A DNA stretch of 53,709 bases, counting the filler, from Sluysia triapertura (taxonomy: Eukaryota): NCBI GenBank assembly GCA_046118255.1. It is 4 parts of 4 records of this genome, joined end to end, with 100 filler letters (N's around TTAATTAATTAA, not from the genome) between each part and the next. Parts side by side here need not be neighbours in the genome. Positions count along the whole stretch, not along the records: positions 38,074 to 53,709 come from JBJNIA010223353.1; 3 more parts are not named here. One strand, given 5' to 3'. A program made the position numbers and the translations under genes. Below are positions 5,376-50,260 of the stretch, in pieces. A model generated the notes under the pieces. It was not told where the DNA came from. It did not search any database and saw only the letters and a program-made list of their open reading frames with translations. Each line of letters starts with the position of its first letter. Position 1 is the stretch's first letter.

Positions 5376-5693
5376 GAACTTGATTATTGTATTTTGTTAA
5401 CTGTTTTGTGATTATGAAAAACATAAATATTTCCGACTAATTAGATTTTGTTATTGGGTTATTGTTAGTATTGTTATATATATAACAAAATTGATTTGCA
5501 TTGAGTTATTGAATTATAATTGATATCCCATAAAGTTAGATATACTGAGATTCGGACGTGTTTAATTTTCTTATGCAACCATTTAATATAAAAACCCAGC
5601 AATATAATTACATATTTTTATAAAAACCGTATTAATCCAAAGTGCAGCCTAGGAATAATTAATTTACATTAATTTATATATGAAATTTTTATT

Positions 5694-8870: not shown

Positions 8871-9072
8871 GGTACCTTACATGAAAATATAGAAAAATAG
8901 AAACATAGACAGTGCGCAAAAATTTTAAAATTTAAATTACTTACAATAAAAATTAGCGAGTGTTGGCTCAAAAATTATTTGTTAAATTGTGTTATAAATC
9001 AAGTAAAATTTAGAGATAAGAGAGTAAAAAAGATATTATCAATTAGTAAACAATTTGTTGTTCTTTCACTTA

Positions 9073-9957
9073 ATGAATTTTATAAACGAAAACTATCAAT
9101 TGAATTGTGCAAGTCGAATAAATGACCCTAAAAGAATGCATATATCAAATATTCCATTCAGCTATCGTGAAATGGATTTAAAACAATTATTGAAAGGCTA
9201 TAGTGTAATTCTAGATGTGGAAATTATTTTTATTAAAAAAGGATCAAAAGGATTCGGCTTTGTTACCTTCGAAAACGCATTTGATGCAGATAAAGCAAAA
9301 AATGATTTAAATGGAAAAGAAGTAGAAGGACGTAAAGCGGAAATTAATGTTGCTACTCCCAGATCTATTTTCAACAAAAGAAAAAAATATGTTTTAAACC
9401 AAACTAATGTTTTCAATTTAGAAAATGCCGAAATGTCGTATAAATTGCAATTTCACCCATTCAGAGAAATGTGTTGCCATTTTCATTTTGATAATACTTT
9501 TAGAAATGTAAGATTTTCAAAAGTGTGCAAGCATTGTAAAGCATTTAATACAAGCGATATGGATAAACTGGAAACAATTAAAAGAAAGAGCTCTGTTTCT
9601 TCAGATATAGTTATCCCACCAAATACATCATTTGGTGCACAACCAAAAAATGAAAATTACATCGATAATAACAGAGTCGGGATATGTCAATTCACAACAG
9701 ACGATTTTGGTATATGTCGTAGATCTGGCCACTCATGCCAATACAACCATAATATTTTCGAAACGATTTCTAATCCTATCAATGATTACTATCAAAATGA
9801 TCATATTAATAGATTCAACAAATTATTACTTTCTTTGCGAATCAATCCCACAAATTCCTTATCTACATGTGACAATTATGAGCTAAGCAATAAACATAAG
9901 GATAATCAGATTAAAGTCAAGAGTAAACTTTATTGTTATAAAAATTTTTATATATAG
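9073..9957 (+). CDS. Intronless RBFOX/Fox-1-type RRM protein with a C-terminal CCCH zinc finger (retrocopy-like chimera)
   Basis: [15 protein letters not shown]...[46 protein letters not shown] matches the [30 protein letters not shown] is a CCCH finger. The ORF is uninterrupted, first ATG at 9073. Confidence 0.85.
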
Positions 9958-13656: not shown

Positions 13657-15541
13657 ACTTAAAATAAAACTTACAAAATGTGCATGGGCAGAAGAAAAAG
13701 TATCTTCTTAGGACACATAATATCTAAATATGGTATCAAACCAAACCCAAGAAATATTGAAAAAGTAATCAAGTTTCCTCAACCTGATAATGTTAAAAAG
13801 GTTCAGAGTTTTCTAGGTCTGGATAATTATTATAGGAGGTTTGTTAAAAATTTTGCAAAACTCGCTCAATCCCTCAGAATCTAACAAAGAAGGACACAGA
13901 ATTTAAATGGACCGAAGAACAGAAAAAGGCATTTAAAGAACTAAAGGAACATCTAACTACAGTACCAATATTAATATTTCCGGTATTTTATAAGCCTTTC
14001 CTACTAACTACAGATGCTAGTAATTATGCTATTGGCACAATTTTAGGTCAGAAAGACAAGAATAATCTTGAAGCAGTCATAGCACACGCCAATCGAAGAC
14101 TTAACAAAGCAGAAACGAATTATTCGACTGTAGAGAGAGAATGTTTAGCAATTGTATGCGCATGTAAATTGTTTAGACATTATTTATTATGACAAAAAGT
14201 TTATTTGTACACTGACCACAAACCCTTGACATATTTATATAATGACAGAGATGAAGTCAGTAGACTTAACAGATGGTTTAATAAACTGTCCGAATTTAAC
14301 TTGGAAATTGTTTATAAGCCAGGTAGCTTAAATAACGCAGCTGATTGTATGTCTAGATTGACGAATGTAGACAACAAGGGAAATATCAATTTCATACAAA
14401 TTATGTCGGTATCGGGGAAAATGCAAAACTCTGAAGAAATTATTAAACATCAGAGAGAAGATAAAGAGACTTCCGCTCTTCTAGATGCATTAGCTTAAGG
14501 AACTTTAAATGAATTACAAGCAAAAAGATTAGCTATCATGGATGGAATATTAAGATTTAAAAACATTTAAGATTTATACCTATTCTAATACAATTTCATG
14601 ACGGACAATTAGGAGGTCACTTATCAACAAGGAAAACATTATCCAGAATTAAAAGTAAATACTATTGGGAAAATATGGAATCCGATATCAGAAAATGGTG
14701 CAAAGGCTGTTCAATATGTTGTCGACGAAAGAATACTGGACAAAAGACCAAAACCTATGCCAGTACCACTATCATCAATGGAATTTACCGCTATGGACAT
14801 TATGGGTCCTCTTCCAGAAACCATTAATGGCAATAAGTATATAATTGTATTTGTGGATTATTTGACCAAATGGCCAGAGGCCTACTCGATGCCTAACCGA
14901 AAGGCTGAAACAGTAGCACAGATACTTGTAGAAAAGATAATAAATATAGATATGGAACTCCTAGAAAATTATTAACAGATCAAGGGACTAACTTTACTAG
15001 CGATGTAATCAAATCAGTAGCTAAAATCTTTAATATTCTACGAATTTACACGTCGCTTTACCATTCACAAACTGATGGACTGGTGGAACATTTTAACAGA
15101 CTCTCATCAATATGATCCAATCTTATATATAGCACCATGTCTTTACCAATTTATTTCACTCCGTTTTACCTAATGTATGCTGGTCGATTTGGAATGGGTT
15201 CCACCTACTTCACAGAAATTCCGGAATACGTGACAACAATGAGAGAACAATTACAAGACGCACGGAAACTGGCATGTCTTCAAATTAAATACTCTCAGGA
15301 AATATATAAGTACACATATGACAAAACAGCAAAAGAACATACATTTAAGATAGGTGACGAGGTGTTAATAGATTATCCAATAACTAAACCTAGTCAATCA
15401 CCTAAGTTACATAAACCTTTTAAAGGACCTTATCTAATAACAAAAGTTAACGATACAAATGCGTTTGATAAAGATCCTAATAAAACTAATTCTGAAACTT
15501 TTGCAGCACACGTCAATAGATTCAAGATGGCACCAATATAA
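13657..15541 (+). mobile_element. pol: Ty3/gypsy pol of element A (RT thumb, RNase H, integrase with GPY/F), frameshifted
   Basis: FLGHIISKYGIKP, VQSFLGL.NYYRRFV, TTDASNYAIG, YSTVERECLA, YTDHKPL, ADCMSR, HHCC motif (H...GGH...CKGC), MDIMGPLP, TDQG, KPFKGPY, HVNRFK. Confidence 0.95.
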
Positions 15542-15579
15542 TTTAAGAAATAGAAAAGTTTTTTAAATCAAAACTGAAA

Positions 15580-16242
15580 GTTCAGCCAAGGCACAAAGAT
15601 CGAGATAAACCACCTTCAATTCATGTACTACGAAATAAACAAGTGGTATTTATGATGCATTCCCATGGAAATGACCTGGCTCATATAATGCAAAACGTGC
15701 GATTTAACGGGCGATGTGTTAGAGCAATTGTAGATACCGGTGCTACTGTTTGAGTAGTTCATAAAAACTTTTTAACTACGTGGGAATCAGTGTTCTTAAA
15801 TAGACCAACTCTACTAACATATAATGTTAATCAAACACTCATAAATATTAATGGAACTTTATTATGTTATATAGAAGTATTAGGGCAATATGTACAAGTT
15901 TTAGTAAATGTTTGAGATAATAGCCCATACGGAATAATATTAGGCACGGACGTTATCAATAAATTAGAAGATCTGGTCATTCACAGTAAATATGGCTTTA
16001 TAAAAGTACCACCATGTTCAAATATGATTATACCGCAATTATTAGTTCCACAAGTTGGTGATGTATTAATCTTATATCAAATGCCAATTTCGAATCCACC
16101 ATTACAAGTTCCAGACTTACTATTACCCGATATTGTTGAATCTACACTTCATTTATCTAATATATCATGGGGATCACCATCGACAATTACATCGGAGGAA
16201 AATTCGGATCAGGAATCGGATCAGATGTTCAAGAAACAGTAA
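15580..16242 (+). pseudogene. Second retropepsin-like aspartic protease downstream of integrase (element A)
   Basis: RAIVDTGATV at 15721-15750 and YGIILGTDVINKL near 15930-15965, with in-frame stops. Confidence 0.85.
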
Positions 16243-18470
16243 TGATAATGACTAGTATAAGAAAAAGAAATTGTTTTAACAAAAATTGTTTTAGTAAAAT
16301 ATCTTGTTGGTTTTATATCTTAACTGTAATTTTTCTATCACTTATAATTAATGCTATAGCAATAGAAACAGATGAAGAATACAAAAATATGAATATCGCT
16401 ACAAATCACGGTAGAGAATACAAAATAATGATTAGCGATATATACAATCAATACTGGAAATTTGAATTTATTTCCAAGAAAATGATTTTACGACACAAAT
16501 TTGAAATTTATTGTATCTATTTAAAACCCTTACTAGTAGGAAGACCACATCATTTAAACGGTATCCCACATTGTCCGCATTATGGTTACAGACCTGTGTT
16601 AATAACTTTTCTCTAGACACCCCAAGAAATACACGAGATATCTCGAAATTTATCAAACAAATAGATCAATTAAGAAATGGAGAAACAACAAGAATACAGA
16701 CAACCTTATCCGATTATGGTGCAATTAAGAGACAGATAAATAATTTAAACAATTCAACTGCAAAAGGTACAACGAACATTCTTATAAATTCTTGATAATG
16801 TTACTAATTTTCACAGTACTATACATATTTTGGATTATACTCTATTTGTTTAAAATTGGTAAAAAGATCTTATAACTTTAATTTTGATTATGATAGTTAC
16901 AGTAGTCCAATGCGACGAACAATCCTTTAAAACGGAATACTTTGAATTCTATAATAGAAATAATGAAGTAAAGGTTAAAATATTGAACCAAAACATTCAT
17001 GCCAAATGTGCCTGTTTAAAACCCGCCAAACTTAATTTTAGTTCATGGATCAAATACGAAAATTATATTAATAGTGAATTGAGATAACCAGTCACGGTTT
17101 GCTCAGATATTTTGCCTATCGAAGGTAGACATTATAGTGAAAATCCATCATTCATCAAAACATTCGCATTTTGCATTTAAAGGAACAAGAAAACATTTAA
17201 CAATATTAGAAATATTACGGAATATTGTTTGTAATTGCTTTAGCTATAGTAGTATTGACTATTATTATGTTTGTTTCAAACAAATGTCGATACCCATGCC
17301 TACCACATAACAATAATAATGATGCATACACAGTTCCACATCGAAACAATTATGCTCTTCCACCAGGTATGCCGATACTTCCACCTCCAATTTATGAATA
17401 CGCCACAAATAATCAGATACCACTTATATATGGGTTCTGGCAAATGACTCAAGTAAAGTCTACAATTCTGATATGTATTTACTTATCTTACAAATCAAGT
17501 ACAAATTATTTATCAGGAAACATCGCACCTAAGATAATTCTAGTATCAACTCAAAAGGATATTTACGCTAAAATATTAACAGATAAGGTTAAATTATTTG
17601 CTGTTCAAATAAAATGTTTTTTAAAGGATTTCTACTGGTTTATATCGTATATTGACCTTGTTGAATATCAACTATTCAACGTAAGGTTAGCTATAAAAAT
17701 GGAATATGAATTTCAAAGTGATTCAAAGATTATTTTACTAAGCTACTACAAAATAATAACTAAACCGTTTGTGTTTCAACAATCACCGACATACAACACT
17801 AAGACTAAACCATCTGTCTCTAAGAAATCATCAACGTTAATTGAATTTCGAATGATCATCTATCGATATCTTGGAAATGTTGTACGTATTCATAACCCGT
17901 CATACAATAATACGTTATTGATCGCCTACGAATTGAGTGATGATTTACGTTATGGAATAATATTACCTAATGATACTATTCGTTTGTATCATCTTCCGAA
18001 TAATAGACTTTTGTTCATTAAATTTGGATATTAAGAAAAGCAGAATTATATGATTCCAAAGGATTTTGGCCAACAATCAGATACTATGACGTGCAGGTAC
18101 CAATTATAGATAAGTACGAAAATGATTTAGATACGAAATCAGAAAAAACGTTCAAAAGTGATAACAACGTTATGAAAATACCTTATGATGGGAATAGGAG
18201 TATAAACTCGAGTAATACCAATCGGAACAGGAGCATAAGTGCGAATACTACAGTATAAGTATGAATATAATTAAGGAGACTACTAGTTGTTCAATTATAA
18301 AAGAATCCAACAATAACTTTATCACAACTATAAACTATATTTTAATAATAACTTCTTTGTTAACATTAATAATTAACTTTATTATCCCAAAGTTTTACTT
18401 GTTTATTAGGCAGAGGGCCCATTTTTTTCATATAAGTTTTAATACATATTGCATAATTGACCACATGTAA
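16240..18470 (+). pseudogene. Accessory membrane polyprotein of element A (signal/TM segments alternating with about 3 ectodomains)
   Basis: Colinear homology with 35096-37216, e.g. IYCIYLKPL/IYCIYWKPL, YFEFYN/YFDFYN, PAKLNFSSW/PARLNFSLW, YTVP/YSVP, ITKPF/IKTKPY, GFGQQ/GFGQQ. Confidence 0.8.
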
Positions 18471-23800: not shown

Positions 23801-25113
23801 AATATATTGTATAGTATAAAAAAAATTGAAGAAAAAAAATAGAAAAGCAGATTGATAATAAGGATAAAAGAAATAATAATAATAATGATAACAATAACGT
23901 GATTATTATGTTTATTAATACTGAAATGTTGATGTTGAAATTTATTGTGAAAATTATTATAAAAGTTATCATAAAAGTTATTATTTGATAATCATATTAT
24001 ATACAATAATGACTATAATTATTATATATATTTTAATACGATCAGAATTGTAATAATAATAGCAGTAGTACGTGATAATTAGGTGCGATGATTATGTTTG
24101 TTTTTTAAATGAGTTTAGTAGTTTGTTTAATAATCTGTGTACATGTGAAGTGTTTTTATGTGATATAGAATTATATTATGAATAATTACACAGTTTGTAT
24201 GCTACATTACTTTTGAATTAACCTAATGTTTTAAACAAGCATAACAATACTGGTAGTGAAAGAAAAGTTGAATTTCATGAAATAAAATCAATGTGCTTAC
24301 AAGACAAATCATTAATCTAGTAAAGACATATTCAACTAGATTAATGATTTGTCTTTACTGTCAGCATGCAAAATGAACAAATAGTATAATTTTTCTTAAG
24401 TTTTGACTTATTTTATGTTTAATCCCGCATATCAACAACAATTAATTGATTTTATGACAGAAAGCGTTCAAAATTTGCGTTTATAATTAGCCTTCATCAT
24501 GTAACTAAATGAAAATTATTACGGGTATTTAGTAAACAATATTAAAAACTATCTTTTAAGTTATTGTTTTACAAAAAGTACTAATTTCGTACTGTGCGCA
24601 ACAGTGAAAGCAATTTTATCTACTATTTCGCGCCTACGGTTACATATGTCCCATTAGATTTTCAAATATAATTTTTTTTCCTCTGTGAATGAATTTTATA
24701 TATCGATTAGGATTCATTCGTCCCATAACATTTCCTTCAATAACAATGATAATGATAATAATAATAATAGCAAAATCTAAATTTAGATTCTAAAGAAATA
24801 TCTTCGAAAAAAATTTATTTCAGACGCATCTTTTTAAAAATAGATGAAAATAATTTATTATAAAATATGCAAAGATTCATTTCGGTTTATTTCAATACAC
24901 TATTAAAATCATTAAAAATTTGTATAATTCAAAAATTTAGTAATTTTAAAATTATTTTAATTAATTTGAAAGATAGTCGACTATAAATAGAATAATTAAA
25001 ATTTAGTGCAACCATTATTTCATATTTATCATAAATTTATCATAAATAAATTCCATAAAATTATTTAAAAACTAAATAACAGACAATGCTACAAGATTAT
25101 TAATAAAAAATAC

Positions 25114-25350
25114 TTTAGATATAAGTTCGAGGTCTTTCTTGTTTGCATGGATCACTTCTTCTTTATTAACAGATCCAATTTCAAAACCATCACATTTAAT
25201 ATCGACAATATTTAAAGGGTTTATTCCAATATCTAGTGACTGAGCACCGGTTGATCCTTCTTTGACATCAAAAAAGAATAATTTAAATTCACTAAGGGCC
25301 AAATACTGCTTCTTCCAACCTTTTCTTATTCCGCCTTGCTTATGAGGAAC
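25114..25350 (-). CDS. CDC42BP: Exon of an MRCK/CDC42BP (genghis khan)-like kinase, PH domain
   Basis: AG/GT-bounded 237-nt exon encoding VPHKQGGIRKGWKKQYLALSEFKLFFFD...SVNKEEVIHANKKDL. Confidence 0.8.
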
Positions 25351-25673
25351 CTGAAACATGGAAAGTAAAAAAAGTCATGTATTTTTTCCAAATTTATCAG
25401 TTTATTTATGAATTTATGAAGTTTAGTACCAAATTCGTTTGAAAAGCTTACGAAAGAAAAATTAATTATAATGGATTGAAATGAAATTTTGACGTCATTT
25501 TAGTTTTCGTATTTGTTCTACATTATGCATTTAAATTGGTACTTCATAGATTTTAAGCAGAAGACTAACATACAATACAATAATATTCAGAAAAAGTCAA
25601 TAATGATTTTTACGTTAGTTTCAATGTGAACTATATATTAAATAATAAAAATTTATTTTGATAGATAAAATAC

Positions 25674-26882: not shown

Positions 26883-28439
26883 TCATATCATATAAACTAA
26901 GTTTCTTGGAGGAGGTTGATATAGGTTTCGTTTTTCTTTTATTTCTTTATCAACTCTTTCTATATTAATTATTTGTAGTACAATTTCTTCTCTTTGTTTT
27001 CGTTCAATTTTCATAACATTTAATTGAGCATGAGCATGATGATGTAATTGGATGTTTAGAATGGGAAACATCCAATTATTAATTTCCAGGTTGATCCAGA
27101 TGTTTTAAAATACCTACTACCGAAAATATTTGAGATATAATACAAGCATATACCTGCTAGACTCCATAAAATGGATTGCCAGGGCATCGAACCTGGCACC
27201 TCTTGCTGAGCAGTTCGATACTCTACCACTGAGCTATCAGCTCCGTCTAACAATTTTATTTTATTATATTCAATTTTACCAAATGGCACTTTAGGCTTTT
27301 TACCCCAACATACCTATGAATCCTGAAAATGCTTGTCTTATCACTAAGAAATATCCCCTTATTTGTTTAAAGTATTACGTGCTATTAAGTGGTCTGGTCC
27401 TAAAAGTAGTTCAAAATTTACTTTACTGTCTTTTCTACAATTGCCTTAATGGGAGATAATATTTCACACCAAGCTGCTTGAATTTCTTCGTTTTAATACA
27501 TTCCTGACCAAGAGATATTTTTTATAGCTGAAAATTTTAATTTTGATTTTGATTCTCTCAAATCTATAATTTCTGGAGTTTTAACTTGGCGGTGAAGTAA
27601 AGATATTCATAAGTTATCATTAATTTTATATTATGGTGCCATCATATTAGAACAGTGTAGTATTTTTGGTTTTAATTAATTTGTTGGTATTATTATTCTT
27701 GTAACAGGTTCTAAGTGAGTTGGTTGATTTTTATAAGTAATTGGTAGTTCATTTGTACATCGTTTTCTTCTCTAATTTGTACTTTTACTTTTTTTACATT
27801 TATGTGTGTAAACTTCACCCATTAACCTACAAAATACGCCTTCTTTTAAAAGAAGTAATGGTGCTACTAAATTTGGATTAGTTATTGCTACAGCCAATTT
27901 AGTTTTTAATATTTCTTTTTTTAATTGGAAATCTCTAGCTATCATAGCTTGATAAACTTTTTCTAACGACATAAGTCCTAAATGGTAATAGAAATCAAGT
28001 TTATTATTAAAATGTGTATTTAATTTTAAATTTTTTGTGTCTATATATCTCTTTGCTTGCATTATTAATTTTTCAGATAAATAAATTCCCTGATAATTTG
28101 GTTCTGTGATTTCTTGTCCGTATCTGATTACTAGCTTTTTTGATGCAAATATTAGTCCATCTTCATCTTTATTTGCCATTAATAGTGTAGGAATTTCTAC
28201 CTCACTAAGTCTTTTTCTTTGTGGTGCATCTAAGTTATCCTTGTAAATTTGTTTTTTATTTATTTCATCTACCACCAAATCTTCATCATATTGATACATA
28301 AATCCGGAGATTAAATTAAATTAGATTTGTTTTAAAAATATTAAAGGGCATTGAAATTTTTCTAATTCATATATTAATGTTGATTCTTCAGTATCATAAC
28401 TTGTTTGATCACTTTTACAGAATGGACGTGACATCATAG
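26883..28439 (-). pseudogene. env: Chuvirus-G / herpesvirus-gB-like (class III fusion) envelope glycoprotein, decayed
   Basis: NNKLDFYY...LKKEILKTKLAVAITNPN...EGVFCRLMGEVYTHKCKKVKVQ...CTNELPITYKNQPTHLEPVTRII...CSNMMAP.YKINDN...SGMY, followed by the TM region FSGFIGICLYY. This is the motif order of chuvirus-type glycoproteins. Confidence 0.75.
27155..27310 (-). mobile_element. ~156-bp TG...CA element with a tRNA-like core, 4-bp TSD TACC, inserted in env
   Basis: tacc|TGCTAGAC...CCCCAACA|tacc. Removing it restores the env frame (SGFIGICLYY). Confidence 0.8.
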
Positions 28440-35095: not shown

Positions 35096-37216
35096 CTATA
35101 CCTTGATTGAGCGAGTTAATCTACGCGTGTTAATTACATAAATTTTTATGACTTCAGTCGTAAGATTGACTGCAAGTAACGCATAAAGTATGAATGTTAT
35201 AAGAGATAAATATATGTTGATTTTATTTGAATTGGCTTGGTCGCTATTGTTGATTATTTTAATTGAAAAATTATTATTTGGAGTTTTAATAATTTTATTA
35301 GTTTTATTGAGTTTAGTAGTTTTCTTATTTATTGATTTTGTCATTTCGTACTTATTATACTTATTTAATGTATCTTCAATAGTTTCATTAATAATTGGTA
35401 CTACTAAATTAAATTGTTGTCCAAATCCAATACGGTTCATTTTAAATGTTTCATTAATGAAACGTATCCATACATATATAAATGGGAACGTCAATTATGT
35501 TTGGTAATCTATTCTAATTGTTAACTTAGGTGGTATTAACTCTATAGTGGAAACCTTATTGGTACGATATTTTATGGCGATTGGATTATTTAGTAACGTG
35601 TTGGTCATTTTAACTAAGTTATTTCTGTCAATTATTGCTGTAAAGGAGCAATTCATCCATTGTCTACTAAAATAATCAAAAAATAAATATGGTTTAGTTT
35701 TAATCCAGTGATACTGTGTGTATATTAATCTATTTATTAGCTCTATTGATATCTTAACTTTATATAATTGGGATTCGAACAATTCTTCACAAGTTATGAT
35801 CCATTTTTTGATTGTTATATAAGGGATGGCTGAAGTAGTGCATTGATCTTGTAAGCAGCATCTTATAGATAAGTGAATTAATTTTCCATTTATGTTTTTA
35901 ACACTAGCTATAATTTCATCGGTTTTCACTTGAATAGATAATTGCATGTCATTATAAAACATTTTCTTGCTTAATTTGTTTGTCGCATTAGCAGTGATTA
36001 TACATGTTAAACAAATACATAGTAAAACTGATGACATTTGAATTCCGTTGTAATGTGTCTGTAATCTTAAATCATCATTATATTCGTCTAATGGAGATGG
36101 CATTAATGGTGGTCCTGGAGGAGCATAAAATCGATTGATTCTTGGTACTGAATAATGATTATCGTCGTCGTTATTAGATGAAAAATTCAAATATCTATAT
36201 TTGTTCATTATAATAAACGTGATCATTAATAATGTTATAATTAAAGCAATAATAAATAATGTTGCTGCTATGATTAGAATTGCCAATGATGGATCTTTTC
36301 GTAATGAGTCTATAATGGTTAATTCTTTTCTATTACCTTTTATGGCATAATGTAGTTGTTTAATTATTTTGGCTTGCTTTTTTATAAATATTACTATATG
36401 TCTGTCTTCAGAAAGCAAAACATCCTTACAAATTGTAACGGGATATTCTGTATTTGGTATTGCATGTTGATAGGTTTCCCATAAACTAAAGTTGAGTCTT
36501 GCGGGATTAATACATATATAATTTGCTTTTATGTTCATATTGGTCATTTTGATTTGTACTTCTGTGTCATAGTTGTAAAAATCAAAGTATTTCGATCTGT
36601 ATACTTTCTGTGATCCATTTGCTATTGATATCATTGATAATATAGTGAGTAACGTTATATCTCGACGAATGTTATTAGTTTTTAAAATCCTATTACAAGT
36701 GATAATGTAATAAATGCTAAATAACAAGTATATTATAGTGAAAATTAGAAGTGCCAGTATAAAGATATTCTTTGTACAATCTTCATTCTTTTTTCTTATT
36801 GTATTTGTGCTTATTTCCTTATTATTCATACTTGTTTCTTTATTTACTATTTTATCTGTTAATCTTTCCAAATATCTTGTTGTTGTTGGTGGTGAAATTA
36901 TTTAAGTTTCCTTGTAACATTGTTCATTAAGTATGTCCGTGAAATTTATTGTTATTAACTTACAATTATAAAATGAAAATCCTATTATTGTAGTAAAATA
37001 GATTGAATGTTCACATTGGTAAATATCATCTACTAACAAAGGTTTCTTTATTACTAATGGTTTCCAATAGATACAATAAATTTTTAAATTATAATTGGGT
37101 ATTGTGTTTCTATCGTCTATTTCAACTGTCCAAAATCGATTGAAAATATTTGTAAGAAAGATTGCCTGTTTAGTATCAGTATAGCTTGTTAAGTTTGTTG
37201 GATAATGAGTTATCAT
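35096..37216 (-). CDS. Accessory membrane polyprotein of element B (nearly intact; ORFs 36902-37216, 35495-36871, 35096-35494)
   Basis: Multiple TM and signal segments, a Tyr/Pro-rich cytoplasmic loop, and colinear homology to 16240-18470. Confidence 0.8.
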
Positions 37217-37231
37217 GGTAGTTAATTGAAG

Positions 37232-37800
37232 TTATCTGTAGTTATCTGTTCCTATGCCTGATGTTGAAGAAACTGTGGTATCCCACCAATCAAGATTTTC
37301 CCAATTCGGAGTTGGTGATGGTGGTATAATTGGATTCAATTCTGTAATTTGATAATTCTGTGGTAGAGGTGGTACTGGTCTTGGCATTGGAGGTAAAACT
37401 AATTGTGGTAATACTACATGTGTTCCTGAAGGTATTTTGAGAAATCCTAATCTTCCATGAATTACATTATTTTCTAGTTTATTTATTACATCCATTCCTA
37501 ATATAATATCATATGGGCATTTTTCCCCAACTAATATTGTTACAAACAAATCTACGTCTAAAATTGTTAATTGACATTGTAATATTCCATTAAATAAAAT
37601 ATATGAATCGTATTCCAGCTTGTTGTAACATTGTAATTTCTAAAGCATTTAGTCTATTGTAATTAATAATAGTGTTATTTGAACCTGTATCTATGACTGC
37701 TGGTACCCATAGTTGATTGAATTTAATGCTTTGAACCAAGTGATTTTGTATATTGAAAGAAGAGGTTATCATACTTATTGTACTTATTGGTTTATTATTT
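37232..37800 (-). pseudogene. Second aspartic protease of element B
   Basis: VPAVIDTGSNNTII (DTG at 37683-37691) and CPYDIILGMDVINKLEN, homologous to 15580-16242. Confidence 0.85.
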
Positions 37801-37973
37801 GATAAATCCGTGCTTAATAACTTAGATGGTTTATCTCTGTCTTTAATCCTTGGTTTAACCTTTAATATACTTTTCGTAATCTTTCTATTTCTTAAGTTAT
37901 ATTCGTCATTAGGTGCTAATTTACATCGATTTACGTGTACAACAAAAGTTTCCGCATTCATATCATTAGGTTT
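37801..37973 (-). mobile_element. Integrase C-terminus of gypsy element B, in frame with the second protease
   Basis: AETFVVHVNRCKLAP..YNLRNRK...KVKPRIKDRDKP matches element A SETFAAHVNRFKMAP..NLRNRK...KVQPRHKDRDKP. Confidence 0.85.
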
Positions 37974-38073
37974 NNNNNNNNNNNNNNNNNNNNNNNNNNN
38001 NNNNNNNNNNNNNNNNNTTAATTAATTAANNNNNNNNNNNNNNNNNNNNNNNNNNNNNNNNNNNNNNNNNNNN
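37974..38073. other. Artificial contig linker
   Basis: TTAATTAATTAA at 38018-38029 inside Ns. Confidence 0.95.
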
Positions 38074-39289: not shown

Positions 39290-39594
39290 TTAATTTGTTC
39301 TGTCAATAATTTTATTACTTTTAATAATATTTATGCCTTCAGCCTTTAATCGTTTTAATATCGGTCTATAAATATCGACAGTTAAAGGTAAAACTATGCC
39401 CTTCCGTTGAATTTCCCCATCCATGATCATTTTTACTCCAATCGCAGCTGGATAACCCACTGTTTTACCCATTGCCATAAAACCATTCGGATCACCGTAG
39501 CATACAAGACGAACTTCATGCTTTTGAATTTTATTTTCTGGCCATTTAATAAAAACTTCATGTATCATTATAACCACGTCACGTTCATTGGGTT
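39290..39594 (-). CDS. AASS: Last exon of alpha-aminoadipic semialdehyde synthase (saccharopine dehydrogenase C-terminus)
   Basis: Acceptor actttcag, then PNERDVVIMIHE...LVCYGDPNGFMAMGKTVGYPAAIGVKMIMDGEIQRKGIVLP...IYRPILKRLKAEGI. Confidence 0.9.
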
Positions 39595-40724
39595 CTGAAA
39601 GTTATTATTATCATTGTCAAGGTAAAACTGACGCGTTATAAATTATGTATAATAGAACACATTAATTTATTTTGAAATTAAATTTATTAAAACCTTATAA
39701 TAAAATTCTAAACTAGTAATAAGATGATAGTTAAAACGTGAACGGGTATAAATAAAGTAGCAAGGCAGAGAACAGATACAAAAAGTAACTAATCGTTTTT
39801 ATCAGACAATAGTAAAAACGTATGTTTAAAGTTACAAAAGCTTACTAATTATCTACAACCTGAGAATACTTATACTCCTCCTGTCCGGCAATGATAAATA
39901 CAACTATTATTTTATAATTTCCAGTTAACTAACTCAGTTCGGTATTATAACTGTCATTCAATCCAATTCCTCTTTGTTTGTAAACAAATTTGTAAAGTTA
40001 TTTTATAAGTTTTTTCCCTTAATTAATTTAATGGTCAAACTGCGATTAAAAATCATTTGTAAACTTCATTCTAGCATAAGGCTATTATAAAACATTATAA
40101 AAATATCTCAAAAAAATCATTAAAAAAATTAATTGTATATATTGTTATACATTTCTATTACAAAGTTTGTATATAGTAATATAATTAATTTGTGATTAAT
40201 ATTATTATTTGTGTTTAAAGCAAAGAGCAGCAAGAAAAGTCACCATTCTTTTATTTGGTGTAAAGGTTATGAAGGAGATTTTACGAATTTTGATATAAAA
40301 GATTAAAATCGATATTTGTTGACAAAACTCTTATAAAAGAATACAAGCTTAAAGGAATCGTAGTTTCCAAAGGAGTATAAAAGCAATTGGTTTATTTATA
40401 GTGTAGTCAAGATGATTGTTTTTGTAGTTACAACAGACCCTATTAACATTTTAAAAATGTATTAGAAAGAAAAGATGTAAACCATTTACTACAGGAGAAG
40501 ATATTTTATTTTTTAGTGAATTTTTCCTAGTAGAACACTTGCATCATCATCATAATGCTTTAAATTTTGAAGTACAGTAATGACTAAAGAGAGTAAAGGT
40601 TATCAAATTCTTCCTCAAATACTTTAAGTATATTTCAAAATTCTTTTATCATTAATTTTCTTACGATCACACATAATAGAATAAGAGAATCTAAAAATAC
40701 AAATTACGTAATTAAAAAACGTGA

Positions 40725-41660: not shown

Positions 41661-44463
41661 GCTGTCATAATGATTTTCACAGTAATTAAAGCAGAAATTA
41701 TGCGGCGTTGAAAGGCAAAATAATTATTGAAGTTTTACGAAACCGACTATTGAAAATTATGCATAAATATTACAAATATGATCAAAATGGTAAAAGACTT
41801 TGTTTATTAAAGAATTTGTAAAAAAAAGTGTGTAAATACAATCAGTTTTGACAGGAAACTTTAAACTTTATTTGAATGTGAAAAAATAAATGTTTTTATA
41901 AAGTTTCCGTAGATATTACTAAAAAAATCTCAACAGATATCGAACTACATATTCTTAAGTATTATAGATTAGTATCCCAAGTTTCAATTTCTACTCCAAA
42001 TATGCAAATGCAAATACTTTAAATCGTCACTTGAGCAATCTATATTCCGTGTGGGAATTTTTCAAACAACAATAACTAATAATAATATGGTGTTTTGTAG
42101 CAACTTACCAACTTCATACAAAAAAAACACATAAAAACACATAAATAGAATGAATCCATGACACTACAAAGCTGCAATTGAAAAAGTCATTGTTTCAAAA
42201 CTCAGATACAAATAGTGATGTTGCGATCAAGAATTATTTGAATTGAGGTACTAAATTTACTAAAACAGATTTAACTACTTTGTAAAAGTTTTATGAGCAT
42301 GAGATTAAAAATAAATACGGTAATTTTGATGAAAATGGGACAATACTTAAAAAAGGAATTAACAAATTGTCTACAATAAAAAATAACATGCCAATAAATA
42401 ATTTAATTTTGATGAAATTTAAATAAATGTATCACGGTATACATGACACAAGCACAAAGTGAATTTGAAAATAATAGTGTATTTATCAATGAGAGATATA
42501 AACTAAAATTCTAAAATACTTTGATTGACAATCACGTATTCTCCAAAATTGAATTTAAACTAGTGATATTAATTATAGACAGTTTAATGAAGGGATAGTT
42601 TTCTTAGATAATAGGTGAATTACACATTATCTTACCATGTGATGAAATTTTAAATATTTTAAAACTCTTCAAATGGTAAAGAGAAAATAAAATGTAAACA
42701 TAATGAAATCGTAAAAACAATGATATTTTACAAACACCATTGAAAAGTAAGTAAGGAAAGTAAGCAATTTATTTCCATTTTTAGGAAATAAAACTCGAAA
42801 GAGCGAGAACAATTCAATGCAAAATGATTTTAATGTAGAAAAGCGAAACTATTAGATAAAACAAACACAATCTGGACACAAATAGAAAAATATAACTAAA
42901 CTAAAATAAAAAAAGAAACTTTAGTTAGCAAATAGTTATAGGATAAACATCTTAATAGAATTAATATAAATAAAAACTGATTCACACCTTAAAATAAAGC
43001 GTTTAATAATTTATTAATGTTAGGATTATAAATTTAGTTTGCAATTATGCATATATTTGTATATTAAAGTGTTTTAAATATTTTTTTACACTTAAAAATA
43101 AAATGAATTATTTAAAATCAAAATTTTAATAAAATGTTAGATAATTTAAAATAAACTATAAATTAAATACAATTTTTAAATAATAAATTATTTAATCTTT
43201 AAACTAAATACAATTTTTAAATTAAAAAAATTGTGAAGTCTTTTTTTTGTTTTATCAAATTAAATAAATTAAGATGGAAGAATCAATCAAATTAATATAA
43301 ATAGAAGCAGGTAAAATTTTAGTTTTCAATTTTTTTAGACACGGATTTTAGATTTAGCATTTTAAATAATTAGAAATTTTGAGAACATTTTAGAACTTAC
43401 AAATTTAATCCATGCACAAGTAATTTTATCGATTCACCGCTAAGGGAATCTCAAAATCTACGAAAAATTGTTTTATTTTTTAATACATCTTAATCAGAGT
43501 TATGTAACATTATACTAAAATCGTTAGTAATCAACTAAGGTTGAATTACTTAAACTCATTATCATTATATTTTATTTCTAATTGTACGTCTATTGTTTAT
43601 CATAGCTCTGTAAGCAAAATTTATTTAATAAAAATTCTAGCTTAAGTGTGTTTCTAATCAATTTAAAATACTATTTTATCAAGCAAAACCATAAAAAGGG
43701 TTGCGTAATTTCTAAATTCAAAAAATTATTTTTCGAAGCAAAACCATAAAAAGGGTTGCGTAATCTCTAAAATCAAAACTATTTGTGGTGTAACACTTCA
43801 ACATATATCATACATCACATCCATTATCATCATTAATGACATCAACTATATCACGGACACAAATTACATCGAAATAAACACACCTACAACATCTGCAGTA
43901 TCACACCTCATCCCCGGAAAATCACAAACGCTTAGTAAAATCTTTTTATTAAAATTTTTCTATTTGAAATCCTTTATTAACACTTTCTTATACGTAACGC
44001 CTATTTCCACCTCATCAGCACTACTACACTACCTTTTTATTTGTATTTATTATTATTATTATTTTTATCATTATTATTATTATTAAACCTTCAAAAATTA
44101 TGCATTATTCCAATACTAGAAATACTTATGAATAACAATCAAATGCAGTTATTATCATTATTATTTTGTTGTTATTAACTTTATTTTATTATTGTATTAT
44201 TTTTATTATTTCATTTTATTATTTTTATCATTTTATCTTATTATTGCAATTCATTATTTTTATTATTTTATTTTATTAATTATATTTTATTATTTTTATT
44301 ATTAATTTTATTTTTTAAATTTTTATTATTTTTATTTTTATTTTTGATATTATTTTATTATTTTATTTTTGCTATTAATTTTATTATTAATTTTATTATA
44401 ATCTTTTATTATTATTTTTATTATTTTATTACTATTAATTTTAATATTAATGATTTTGTTTAA

Positions 44464-45737
44464 ATAATATTTTATTATGCATTACTAAAAAATTTAAAAA
44501 TATACAGTACTTCAGAGTACACAATACATGATTGTAATGACAGGATTACAATCCAAGTTAAATGTGTAACCTGTGCCTTACGAAAAAATGTCACAATCTG
44601 TCAACGCTCATCAATAAAGACCTTAAACAACATTATGAACCATAGAGATGTCTGGTTTTCTCACCAATCAAAACCGCTACGGGAACACCTTACATTTTGT
44701 GACTACAATATATTCGACGGAGCTGTAATCGGACTAACACACAAGCTGCTCGGCGGATCAGACGTCGACGCCGACATGCCCTTCAGACAACAAAAAACGC
44801 AGAAGGTGAACACCTTTGAAACTCCCTTCTTCACTGACGAATCTGGACTCCCAAATACATGGTTCCTCGTCGTGGAAGCACATTTTGAACGATACAACAT
44901 AAAACGACAGAGCACCATGTTTAACCAGTTACTTCCTCTCCTTCCGCAACCTCTCTTAAGCAAATTAGGCAGCAAGATTCAAACTTGTTTGCAGTCGGAG
45001 AGCGCCTATGACGATTTAAAACAAACAATCTTGGCACACTACCGTCCCAATACACAGAAAGTGTTCCAAGATTATTTCAAGGCGCAATCCTTAGGGACTC
45101 TTTCCCCTTCAGAATTTCTGGCCAAGATTAGAAATGATCTTGAGCCCTTTGGTTGCGAAAAGGATGAAAATCATGACGTCCTAAAGAGATTATTCTTGGA
45201 CGCCATGCCCACCGAAGTCCAGACCGTACTTACCGGCAGCCAAATTCACGATATTAAAGAATTGGCCAACCTTGCCGACAAGATAATAAATCAATGGCGA
45301 ACAAGGCGTACAGACACCATAAGTTCCATGAACGATACACCACAATCTAAGTCAGGCATCACTTTAGAATCCATGTCAATGAGGATCGATGCCCTGACCG
45401 CACAAGTAGCTGAAATCACCAAATTAGTCGCTACAAGTCTGACGCAACACGCCAGCAATCCTCCCACTAGACGACAATCACCACCGAACTCCGGGTCCTC
45501 ATTGCTATCCCGAAAATCAGCCAGCAGTCCCGGAAGGTTCAACGGTATCTGCTATTACCATGACAAGTACAACAGAAAGCAAAATGTTGTGTACTAGGAT
45601 GCAGATACCCCAATAAGTTGAACACACTCCGAATAAAGAATATTTGCATATACCATGCACATTTCAAAAACCTGGCCAAGCGATGCATGGACGGCTGCAA
45701 TCAATTCAATACTTTCAATGCAGCATCAAAAAACTAA
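44464..45737 (+). mobile_element. gag: gag of a CsRn1-clade gypsy element with an N-terminal ubiquitin-like domain and two CHCC knuckles
   Basis: The frame is open from 44464. Ubl ITIQVKC...KPLREHLTFCDYNIFDGAVIGLTHKLLGG, then PNTWFLVVEAHF...YDDLKQTIL...PSEFL...ELANLADKI, then C-x2-H-x9-C-x3-C twice (1-nt deletion near 45578). Confidence 0.85.
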
Positions 45738-45778
45738 ACTCGCCATTGGTCGTAGCGGCCAGACCGGACAATATGGCG
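45728..45778 (+). promoter_or_regulatory. Probable -1 ribosomal frameshift site between gag and pol
   Basis: Slippery AAAAAAC at 45728-45734 is followed by the gag TAA, then a downstream stem CGCCAT...ATGGCG with inner tggtcg/cggcca. pol is in the -1 frame. Confidence 0.65.
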
Positions 45779-48624
45779 ATCAACAGTATATTTTCAGTGC
45801 CGCTCAGATTTATCAATTTTCAGCATGTCTCCCTCGAGTTTCTTATTGACACTGGAGCCGCTGTTTCGGTGATACCACAAAAAATTATAAATAACACCGT
45901 CAAAACACATTCATATTTAACAGCAGCTAACGGAACAGCCGTGGCTTGCTATGGCTCCCAGAAACTCCAATTTCAAATCCACCCGTTCAAAGAAATACTC
46001 GAATGGACTTTCCTCATAGCGGCAGTTCAACAACCAATATTAGGAGCAGACTTTTTTAGTCATTACAAGTTCTCGGTTGACTGCCACACAAGAACTCTAC
46101 ACAAAACCTCCGGATAATTGTCACACATAAAGATAGAACAAAATCAAATAAACGAAACAAACGTTCTTTCTTATGTGGAGCAGGTGTATCCAAACTTAAT
46201 TTAACAACAATTCAATCCGGATTATACACCTTGCTCGGAGCATTTCATTAATACACTACCCACCCCACCGTGTAGACAGCGACGAAGGGAATTAGCGCAA
46301 AAAATCCGTTCCTAAGCAGAGCTCGAATTCCTTGACATGGGAAAACAAGGAATTGTGCGGCGATCTTCTTCACCCTGGGCCGCACCTCTGCAAATCGTCA
46401 CAAAAAAAGATGGCACTATTCGCATATGCGGTGACTACAGAATGCTAAACAAAGTCACTATTCCTGACGCATATCAGATGCCTCTTATAACCGATATTTT
46501 ACACCGATTTACGAAATGAAGCGTCTTTTGCTCAATAGACCTCGCAAAGGCATATCACCAAATACCGGTACATACCGCTGATATACCAAAAACGGCCGTG
46601 ACTACTCCTTTCGGTCTCATTGAGTATATCAGAATGCCTTTTTGTCTAAAAAATTCCTCTCAAACTTTTTAACGGCACATCGATCAAATATTACAAGGAT
46701 TGCTGTTCGTCACATAGTGATCACTTCTAAGGATTTTCACCAACACCAAATCCATTTGGATGCAGTGTTAAAGAAACTGGCAGACAATAATTTGGTAATC
46801 GAACCCACGAAATGTCAATTCTTCCAGTCTAGAATTACATTTCTGGGACACCATATATCTGCTTGAGGCATCGAACCATCGGAAACCCATACAGCAGCAA
46901 TAAGAGACTTTCCGCAAACTCAAACGGTCACACAAATGTGGAGTTTCTTGGGATTAGTAAATTATTGTCACAGATTTATACGAGGCTATCACATATAATA
47001 GCCCCTCGGGCAAGAAATCCCAGTCAATTATGTGGAACCAAACATCCTTAGCATCCTTTCATTGTACAAAGAAGTGATCATGGAAATGAAAAGTTTAGCT
47101 TTTCCGCTTCCACAAGTACCTTTTATTCTAACTACGAACGCCTCCAATATAGCAATCGGCGCGGTAATTGTGCTGGACCTATTGAATTCTTTTCCCACAA
47201 ATTATCAGGGCACCAAACAAGGTATTCCACATTCGATCGAGAATTGCTGGCTATCTTCCTATTAATAAAACACTTCGAGTACTTGTTGGTACCAGCTCAA
47301 TTCACACTTATATCAGACCACAAACCCGACTCCAAGGCAACAACGGTACATCAGCTATCTTTCTCAGTTAATTTTAATAATGAATACATTTCGGGACAAG
47401 AAAATGTGGTTGCATATGCCTTATCTCGCGTAAGTATAAACAGTATTGAATTTTTACCAATGTTCACTGTCGAAGACCTACAACGGAATCCTCGAACAAA
47501 TCAAGAAATCGCTCAGTTCAGCGTAACACCAATATTGCGTGAGGGAATTTACTTCAATAATCAATTATCAGACATCGCACGCCCAGTTATTTACCAAGAA
47601 CTACGTATTCCAGCTTTCCAATACGTTCACAACACCACCCATTGTGGAGCTAAGGCGACTTATGAAGTCTGACGCTCTAAGGTTGTATAGCCATCAATGC
47701 GCAGAGATATCAAATATTTGTGCAAATCATGTTTGATATTCCAGTCTGTAAAAGTTCACAAACATACAAAACTGGGACCGCTTCATTTTCCTATAGGCCA
47801 CCTGTTCGAAACAATTCATATGGACATTGTCGGTCCATTACCACAATCGCGTGGCTATACTTATATATTAACAATATTCGACCGACGCAGCCGCTGGCCT
47901 GAAGCCTTCCGAAACCATATCGAGAATCCTGGTTTCTAATTGGATATCTCGCTTCGGAGTTCCTAAGAGAATTATTACGGACCAAGGAGTTCAGTTCGAA
48001 TCCGGCTTATTCAATGAATTAATAAAACAGTTAGGCAGTACCAGATTACGAACGACATCATACCATCCTCAGTCTAACGATATGATTGAGCGCTACCATC
48101 GCGTTATTGGTACGACACAATTGGGTCGATGCCCTTCCGTTAATTTTATTAGGTTGGCGAAATATACCACACACTGCTACTGGATATTCACCAGTCCAGG
48201 TACAAACACAAGATTACCCTTCGAACTATTTGAATCAGAAAACTCTAATGAGAAAATCTATTCTCTCTTATTACGGAAGTATTTCAATGAACTGGACACA
48301 TCTCCCCGACATAATGACAACTCATATATAAACATACCAAAAGACATGCTTGATACTCAATTCGTCTGGGTAGCACTACATCTCTACAAAAAAAGATATT
48401 CTGGACCATATAAAGTTATACAAATAAATCCTGAAAACCGTACAGTTACTATCAATATCAACGGCGTAAACAAAATACTCAACTGGTGCAAATTGGAACC
48501 AGCCACCATTCTTGTAAATCATCAAAAGGAACATTCCCCATCGATCAAGTTCGTTACCTTCGATTCAGCAGTAGTTGTATTACATAACAATGGTAAATTC
48601 AACTATAAGATTAAGACAAAATAA
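45735..48624 (+). mobile_element. pol: pol of the CsRn1-clade gypsy element (PR-RT-RH-IN), decayed
   Basis: [91 protein letters not shown]. Confidence 0.95.
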
Positions 48625-49178
48625 TGGTTTTAATAGAAATTATAGTAGCGCTCCGCGTGTGGTGGCCCAGCCCATTCCTACCTACATGTCACATAAATCA
48701 TGTACACAAACCTCAACACAAAAATTACATCACAACAAATTTTATACATATCATTCACAATGTTAGGTTTTAAAATATTTTACCTTTACGATAGTTAATT
48801 TAGTCGAAGTTTTGAAATAGTATAATGAAATATTTATGAAACATATTTTTATTTTAATTTTAAATGTTCCTGTTTTAAATTCTAATTTTTGTAGTTACAA
48901 AATTGAATTTTATTAGCAAATTCACGACAAAAGATAAAAGATTTATAAACATAAATTCTATTACACAGAAAAAGTCTAAAATTTTTATTGAATTTGTAAA
49001 TATTTTTCTCTATACTTCCTTTCACCCATATTTCCCTACCTAGATATAAAACAACAATTAAATTATCAAAATAATAAAAATAATTAAAATTTAAATGATT
49101 AAATGATGTAGAACATGAATCTAGAATGTTTGGATGGTTTTGAAAGTGTATGTTGATTAATTTCGAATATGATTGTGC

Positions 49179-50260
49179 TTAAATTGTTAAAAACTGAAAA
49201 ATAACAAAGTTGTGCTCTGTATATCCATCGGATCTATTGATAGCTCCTTGGTGTATTTTTAGCAACTTTCCCATTTGGATCCTTTGTAAGAGGCGTCTAT
49301 TGAGCGTCTTAGCAAAAATGCGGTAACACATGTCGAGTATAGCAATAGGCCGCCAATAAGAGGGTTCTTTACCTTGATCCACCTTTCCGGGTTTTATGAA
49401 TAGGAGGGTGGTAAAGTCTTTCCAACATAACGGTATTTCTTCTGTTTCCAGAATCCTTTTAAAAAGAGAAGTTAAGTACTCTCCTTTCGGATCAAGTCTC
49501 CGAATATCATTTAGTGTTATCTTGTTTTGTCCGGATGCCGAGTTCTGACACTCGTTCATAACAAGATGTACTTCATGCGGCACCATCACCTCTCCTGTAA
49601 TGGTGTCTGGGAAGAATGGCAGTTGTGGCATCAACATTTGGTTAAATTGTGGCACTTTTGCACTATTATAGTGGGCTACAATTTGTTGATTTGTCGGTCT
49701 TTCATCAGGAGTTCCCGAGCTGGTAATCAACTGGTATAAGTATATCTTATTTAAGTTGATATCCGCTAAAGTCTTCTTTTCTTTGTGATTTTTACGGGCA
49801 TTATCGTATTTACTCGGGATATTTTCATATCTTGAGTTTGGTCTTGATGTACAAGATCGCAAAACATGTTAAATGCCTCATTTGGCTGTATTTGTTGGGC
49901 CTGTATTCGCTCTATGATGCATGCCACCGTTGGATGCGGTTGTTTTGGTCTCTGCATCATGCATTGGGTCAATAAACAAATATTGTTTAGTAACATCATT
50001 GACAATCAAGATCATCCAATGACTGTTCATGTTGATGACCCAGTACAGATGCTGGAACTTGGCCAATTTGTACAACGGAAAGTTATTCAACAGGGCCTGA
50101 CTCTCCTATATTATGGCATGACTTTGTCACCATCAGAACGATATATGTTAAAAGACTTTTCAAAATTGCTCTATACTCTGGAGGAATTAAACTTTCCAAA
50201 TATTTTAATAATTGAGTTTATAATTGGATTTTGCGTTGATTCCTTTATACGGAATATTTA
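49179..50260 (-). mobile_element. NeSL/R2-group non-LTR retrotransposon fragment: Ulp1-like protease plus N-terminal RT, 3' truncated
   Basis: VINMNSHWMILIV...FIDPM...QQIQPN (Ulp1 His/Asp/Gln order), then IPLCWK...LFIKPGK...PSYWRPIAILDMCYRIFAKTL...HQGA...DGYTEHNF. Confidence 0.8.

Follow-up and report, generated by a model that had tools for sequence, protein, structure and literature searches.

In UBA52, RPS27A and FAU, ubiquitin or a ubiquitin-like protein (Ubl) forms a cleavable N-terminal fusion. Among viruses, the closest described systems are the pestiviruses BVDV Osloss, CP1 and CP Rit, which carry captured host ubiquitin in frame before a viral protein; according to the available portion of the source (PMC8310069), cellular hydrolases produce the authentic N-terminus, upstream scrap and the loss of the first residues are tolerated, and in CP Rit a leader together with a truncated ubiquitin is cut by cellular hydrolases. 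These pestiviral ubiquitins are sporadic, near-identical inserts in an RNA virus that deregulate NS3 (PMC8310069, same portion). Among LTR retrotransposons, the giant planarian gypsy element Burro/GYPSM1 has a ubiquitin/SUMO-like domain in its polyprotein, placed downstream of an N-terminal Gag and between MATH and BCL2-like domains; the available part of that account (PMC6431247) makes no mention of a GG junction. The CsRn1 clade (CsRn1, PwRn1, AgCR, Boudicca and Saci-3) combines a single CX2HX9CX3C (CHCC) Gag box with the gypsy gene order, a DUF7041-type capsid and a tRNA-Trp primer-binding site (PBS), and the word ubiquitin does not occur in the available part of the paper describing it (PMC2582038). 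Nor is ubiquitin mentioned in the available portion of a survey of co-opted gag genes (PMC8321522), and in that of a plant domain survey it is found once, in a reference title (PMC9289625). The literature searched, which included few subscription journals, gave no description of ubiquitin fused before a retrotransposon Gag, and a ubiquitin-fold unit in this place is apparently undescribed there.

The window analysed here, a stretch of 53,709 nucleotides from Sluysia triapertura, is A/T-rich eukaryotic DNA (about 20-30% G+C) containing exon fragments and several decayed mobile elements. One of these is a decayed (dead) gypsy retrotransposon copy with a CHCC-type (CsRn1-like) Gag, in which the Gag-containing frame at 44464-45597 is open for 377 codons. 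Within this frame, positions 44545-44757 (+ strand) encode a divergent ubiquitin-fold domain that begins with ITIQVK at 44545, an Ile standing at the position of ubiquitin Met1. It ends in a K-L-L-G-G tail (44743-44757, + strand), recognized from its sequence and from the tail composition of the family, that corresponds to the R-L-R-G-G protease-recognition tail of ubiquitin. The GG codons occupy 44752-44757, the next residue is Ser (non-Pro) and DUF7041 Gag follows in frame (Pfam E 7e-9). There is no in-frame ATG between 44464 and the start of the domain; one lies within the domain (44635) and one past the GG (44776). A preliminary description of this DNA had reported both the open frame from 44464 and the lack of an ATG before the domain, and both hold, the latter for the interval from 44464 to the domain.

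Taken by itself, the domain scores weakly. Its Pfam ubiquitin match (E 0.035) falls under the cut-off, and single-domain scores against the PDB are low, though all eight sequence matches are ubiquitins; the first match in the Atlas scored 0.90. The family provides a stronger measure. An HMM built from the domains of 29 divergent relatives, with the window sequence and the near-canonical ubiquitins left out, gave the window domain 34.3 bits, or 29.7 bits with the last six residues cut, and none of 1000 shuffles reached either score (maxima of 10.0 for the full domain and 14.2 with the tail removed). A profile made from 23 divergent sequences (22 relatives without a Pfam ubiquitin match at E 0.05, plus the window domain) matched ubiquitin over its full length with an E value of about 1e-5 for single-ubiquitin chains, and also matched ISG15 and SUMO2; chains of ubiquitin-ribosomal protein fusions were likewise among the matches. 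An alignment-based AlphaFold2 model of the domain is beta-grasp-like (mean pLDDT 73.7), residues 9-19 and the N-terminal hairpin being poorly modelled. In an exhaustive structural search with this model, ubiquitin-like chains came first (best Z of 7.1, r.m.s.d. of 1.9 A over 62 residues), with no match at a Z of 8 or above. A Foldseek search with a 358-residue model returned ubiquitin variants as its ten best matches (TM by target of 0.73-0.81, E of 0.012-0.039), none of them at E < 0.001. As the alignments behind them included near-canonical ubiquitins, the models do not count as evidence separate from that of the sequences. The window domain combines a beta-grasp fold with the core residues, at middling structural scores; at core positions 43, 50 and 67, a hydrophobic residue is found in 29-30 of the 30 divergent domains. 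The preliminary description had proposed a ubiquitin-like domain ending in GG in frame with Gag, to be checked for a beta-grasp fold by HMM or AlphaFold; the reading frame, the HMM score and the model confirm it, and 44545-44757 is a real divergent ubiquitin-fold domain, beyond chance.

The remainder of the element is broken. A weak candidate for the start of the 5' LTR (TGTGGTGTAAC, 43784-43800, + strand) is suggested by its likeness to the LTR start of the relative L002; just upstream of it, about 45 nt are directly duplicated almost without change (two AAGCAAAACCATAAAAAGGGTTGCGTAAT copies, 43677-43776). The window showed neither a 5' LTR end nor a match to the PBS of relatives at up to three mismatches. 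Downstream of the domain, 44758-45597 (+) encodes a short acidic linker, the DUF7041 capsid region (about 44851-45066), a helical region and the start of the first CHCC box, which is split by a frameshift that ends the Gag frame early. Three-frame translation places the remaining Gag in a shifted frame at 45564-45737 (+), where the second CX2HX9CX3C box is whole (45645-45698). The DUF7041 region and the box agree with the earlier assignment of this Gag to the CsRn1 type; its fold matches are weak (Arc and MLV capsid, E 0.11-0.12). The broken pol (45728-48504, +), recognized by Pfam and tblastn, comprises protease, reverse transcriptase, RNase H and integrase in several frames with stops, so that the order is that of Ty3/gypsy (gag, then PR-RT-RH-IN); tblastn of the Pol of the relatives L004 and L006 aligned with it in pieces in three frames at 29-44% identity. 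No env gene was found downstream of pol in this element. A candidate 3' LTR start, TGTGGTG after the motif GCGCTCCGCG, is present at 48658-48740 (+), and GCGCTCCGCG also precedes the 3' end of L006. The two LTR candidates resemble each other marginally, with 20 of 500 shuffles scoring equally high, and a self-match search for paired LTRs in the window found none. Contigs from a run of unspecified kind, 2843 in number, matched across all 30 bins of 44470-48650, the domain included, which shows related sequence in many variants and says nothing on copy number or expression.

An A-AAA-AAC run marks the end of Gag and adjoins the point at which the pol frame begins, in the window (45725-45737) as in three relatives (L002 2125-2137, L004 1283-1295 and L006 2380-2392). 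The C-terminal Lys-Asn of most Gags of the family is due to this run, which we take to resemble a -1 frameshift site.

Several other features were seen in the window. Two more decayed gypsy-like elements (13690-18034, +; 35096-38021, -) are each trailed by long hydrophobic frames that are alike by eye and may be env-like. A frame at 27772-28320 (-) matches the Pfam Monjiviricetes fusion glycoprotein (E 1.6e-8), and is an endogenous viral or env-like fragment. Just downstream of the decayed gypsy element, a 229-codon frame (49179-49868, -) resembles by eye the region before a non-LTR reverse transcriptase, with no Pfam match. An intronless 309-codon frame (9028-9957, +), presumably RBFOX-like, encodes an RRM (E 2.7e-16) together with a weak CCCH finger and is perhaps a retrocopy. 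Host exon fragments encode a saccharopine dehydrogenase C-terminal domain (39290-39601, -) and an MRCK PH domain (25072-25374, -).

A full HMMER scan yielded 2187 relatives; to count the domain, we took Gag as the anchor in the best 150. At least 90 residues are called upstream of Gag in 39 of these best 150, and in 34 of the 39 a ubiquitin-like stretch with GG stands directly before Gag (it is absent in five); the GG is kept across the family, a check that the preliminary description had proposed. Such shares are biased upward because the query contained the domain and favoured relatives that have it. The other 111 have fewer than 90 residues before Gag and are mostly not judgeable, several of them lying inside the main clade described below. 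Further cases of the tail are two cut-off calls, one that begins MRLRGG, and P0008, whose tail was seen in the DNA. In a quick Gag tree of 149 rows out of 151 (the other two being too short to use), 35 of 38 labelled members, the window included, fall into one clade (SH-aLRT 86) that also holds eight unlabelled short calls, and P0071, P0106 and P0122 fall elsewhere. A single origin is rejected with a p-AU of 0.014, on a 33-row subset with long branches and a group chosen once the first tree had been seen. As far as these sequences can tell, a domain before Gag is widespread in one gypsy lineage and is also seen in others. Among Atlas clusters that lack the domain, the nearest come mostly from arthropods, and none of 20 clusters looked up bears an informative name. 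Word-index protein searches for relatives found nothing, and locus searches of viral and metagenome contigs with a protein or subclade alignment found no confirmed relative; a motif pattern scan gave no viral locus and seven metagenome loci, six of them family members, the seventh (L001) being a chance match of the pattern.

The comparison with the described systems can now be drawn. As in CsRn1-clade elements, the CX2HX9CX3C box, the gypsy order and a DUF7041-type capsid are present; unlike in that clade, a second box is present in 28 of the 37 labelled relatives (against 6 of 113 others) and the PBS of L002 has another sequence. Unlike that of Burro, the domain of this family precedes Gag, and the elements are of ordinary size (a unit of 4965 nt in L002). 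Median pairwise identity is 19% for the domains and 29% for Gag, and whereas the pestiviral inserts are sporadic and near-identical, the retrotransposon domain at about 19% identity is fixed in a deep lineage and precedes a capsid protein.

We propose, with a probability of roughly 0.7, that the ubiquitin-fold unit with its GG would serve as a cut site for host deubiquitinases, freeing Gag from a long translated leader. Ribosomes would start at the first AUG near the 5' end of the RNA and read through LTR, PBS and packaging leader; a host enzyme of the USP or UCH type would then cut after the GG, giving Gag and Gag-Pol a clean N-terminus regardless of the upstream sequence, and the leader could in turn obey RNA constraints and absorb scraps of host genes. 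A cleavable, pestivirus-like leader had been suggested in the preliminary description, and the conserved tail and the fixed place before Gag argue for it.

The upstream DNA of two relatives, L002 and L006, bears on where translation begins; contigs L003, L005 and L007 do not reach far enough, and L004, considered as an element with a broken domain, proved to be cut off inside the domain by the A/T-rich flanking DNA of its contig. L002 (1-8349) is a head-to-tail array with one shared LTR, its copies being 99.85% alike. It carries a polypurine tract followed by the LTR from near 5384 and by a PBS at 5687 (722 in the first unit), which we assume to be of the tRNA-Leu type; the 49 matching viral loci contain no tRNA genes that could identify the tRNA. 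The Gag frame stays open back through the PBS and into the LTR, whose first two ATGs (560 and 599) are both in this frame. The 157 codons up to the domain are free of stops in the Gag frame, where the other frames contain 11 and 16; in L006 the Gag frame runs stop-free over 350 codons as far as the contig edge, and the other frames have 10 and 27 stops. In neither case did any of 5000 shuffles do as well. At least 100 residues precede the domain in 20 of 31 relatives. Peptides derived from the PBS occur in 10 of 31 leaders, spread over all three frames, from which it follows that the frame of the leader is kept open and its peptide is not kept. Translation across the PBS has a parallel in yeast Ty1, in which the PBS lies within the translated GAG frame; in the available part of the source (PMC4974528) that stretch belongs to Gag itself, while in the present family a host enzyme would remove it. 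The cellular fusions UBA52, RPS27A and FAU start at the ubiquitin Met, whereas here 3 of 32 relatives have a Met close to where the domain begins, and a leader runs ahead. A role as membrane anchor was rejected for leaders in general, 1 of 18 having a hydrophobic stretch clearly beyond residue shuffles. Two further features of L006 (92-281 and 5853-5919) are an 85-nt direct repeat within the translated leader and, at the 3' end past the polypurine tract, just a short G+C-rich stretch with near-inverted ends, which matches nothing in the 5' part of that contig.

In the window copy, the stretch at 44128-44520 (+) is A/T-rich and of low complexity, with in-frame ATGs at 44128 and 44143, and may be a decayed leader. 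It has two stops in the Gag frame (44176 and 44461) against seven and nine in the other frames; two stops or fewer were found in 38 of 5000 dinucleotide shuffles, a weak figure as the leader start was picked after seeing the data. The pattern fits, weakly, the decay of a formerly open leader, and such decay is most likely why this copy lacks an upstream AUG.

An unlikely alternative places the start of translation at the domain or just ahead of it, on a non-AUG codon or in a spliced exon, the domain acting as an N-terminal booster of expression or folding and the leader being incidental; cleavage after the GG would happen there too. The window has ATT at the Met1 position and near-cognate codons nearby, the acceptor-like strings tatacag and cttcag noted in the preliminary description are present at 44501-44515, and fewer than 100 residues are called before the domain in 11 of 31 relatives. 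Against this stand the stop-free leaders of L002 and L006 and the in-frame AUGs within the L002 LTR, along with P0021, in which the Met1 position holds a Phe, a residue not encoded by a near-cognate codon. None of the 15 contig joints listed, of 124, touches the acceptor-like sites. Relatives with frames open far upstream and, in L002, AUGs in the LTR need no spliced start, and the spliced start suggested earlier is not supported.

What is conserved points to a cut site. Deubiquitinases read the ubiquitin tail and stall at Pro. In 37 sequences of the family, a set chosen on the GG and so circular as to its invariance, P5 is Arg in 23 and Lys in 6 (29 together), P4 is Leu in 32 and Ile in 4 (36 together) and P1' is never Pro; three of them have a Met directly after the GG, from which Gag could be translated with no cut. 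The Ile44 patch is the surface that most readers of ubiquitin use. Among the 30 divergent domains, 25 have Ser, Thr or Cys at position 44, and in the window domain Ser, Thr and Trp occupy the positions of Ile44, Val70 and Arg42. A kept fold and tail without the Ile44 patch is the pattern that would be expected of a cut site and not of a signal, and the conservation of the tail makes cleavage after the GG likely. A very unlikely alternative is dosage control, in which cleavage exposes a chosen N-terminal residue, or an uncut fraction is degraded, setting Gag levels. P1' is indeed biased (Ser in 17 of 37) and P2' often acidic (Asp in 17, Glu in 2), and a Ser at P1' with an acidic P2' resembles N-acetylation substrates; the P1' residues, however, are both stabilizing and destabilizing, and Lys48 is kept in 12 and Lys29 in 3 of the 30 divergent domains. 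It is likewise very unlikely that the domain remains attached to Gag, or is conjugated after its release, and recruits ESCRT or other ubiquitin readers, as the preliminary description had also considered: ubiquitin on Gag can substitute for late domains, the fold is that of ubiquitin, the GG would be free after cleavage, position 72 is Arg or Lys in 23 of 30 and the near-canonical members retain Ile44, but the divergent domains lack the Ile44/Val70 patch and Arg42 of a conjugatable ubiquitin (Ile44 in 0, Val70 in 2 and Arg42 in 3 of 30), an uncut fusion would need neither an invariant GG nor the absence of Pro after it, and the window element has no env gene after pol, so this reading is disfavoured.

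Several leaders contain fragments of host genes, known from protein calls only, which spliced or chimeric gene calls could also produce. An LRRC47 fragment in P0018 (E 3e-19) and a 5'-nucleotidase fragment in P0161 (E 1.9e-26) each follow a PBS peptide; other leaders hold CNOT1 and Rrp44 (P0095), SCC3 (P0023) and histone H2A (P0063 and P0162). The domain itself is near-canonical ubiquitin in P0006, P0021 and P0159 (Pfam E of about 1e-22 to 1e-23 for P0006 and P0021), position 1 being Ile in P0006 and Phe in P0021. Sister elements are 54-66% identical to P0006 in Gag but 17-23% in the domain, and a tree holding the divergent sisters together is rejected (p-AU 0.035; 15 rows, P0021 being omitted because it is nearly identical to P0159). 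The simplest reading of these members is that host ubiquitin was recaptured, and worn-out domains are likely to have been replaced at times by fresh host ubiquitin. A broader and more tentative idea, to which we give a little less than even odds, is a repeatedly invented, host-cleaved cargo bay: translation would start in the LTR, captured host pieces would be expressed and then cut off, and the unit would be renewed from host ubiquitin mRNA.

Standard annotation misses the domain, since gene calls begin Gag at the next Met or the leader resembles noise. If the cut-site reading is correct, the family would represent a new route of Gag expression, with release by host deubiquitinases rather than by the element's own protease. 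The 5' RNA would be freed from protein constraints, which may account for how host genes are captured in frame with function preserved, and dozens of domains at about 19% identity with one kept tail would constitute a natural map of the minimal needs of deubiquitinases. Were the cargo bay to be real, it would let the element carry and express pieces of host genes, such as LRRC47, 5'-nucleotidase, CNOT1/Rrp44 and SCC3, while keeping its Gag.
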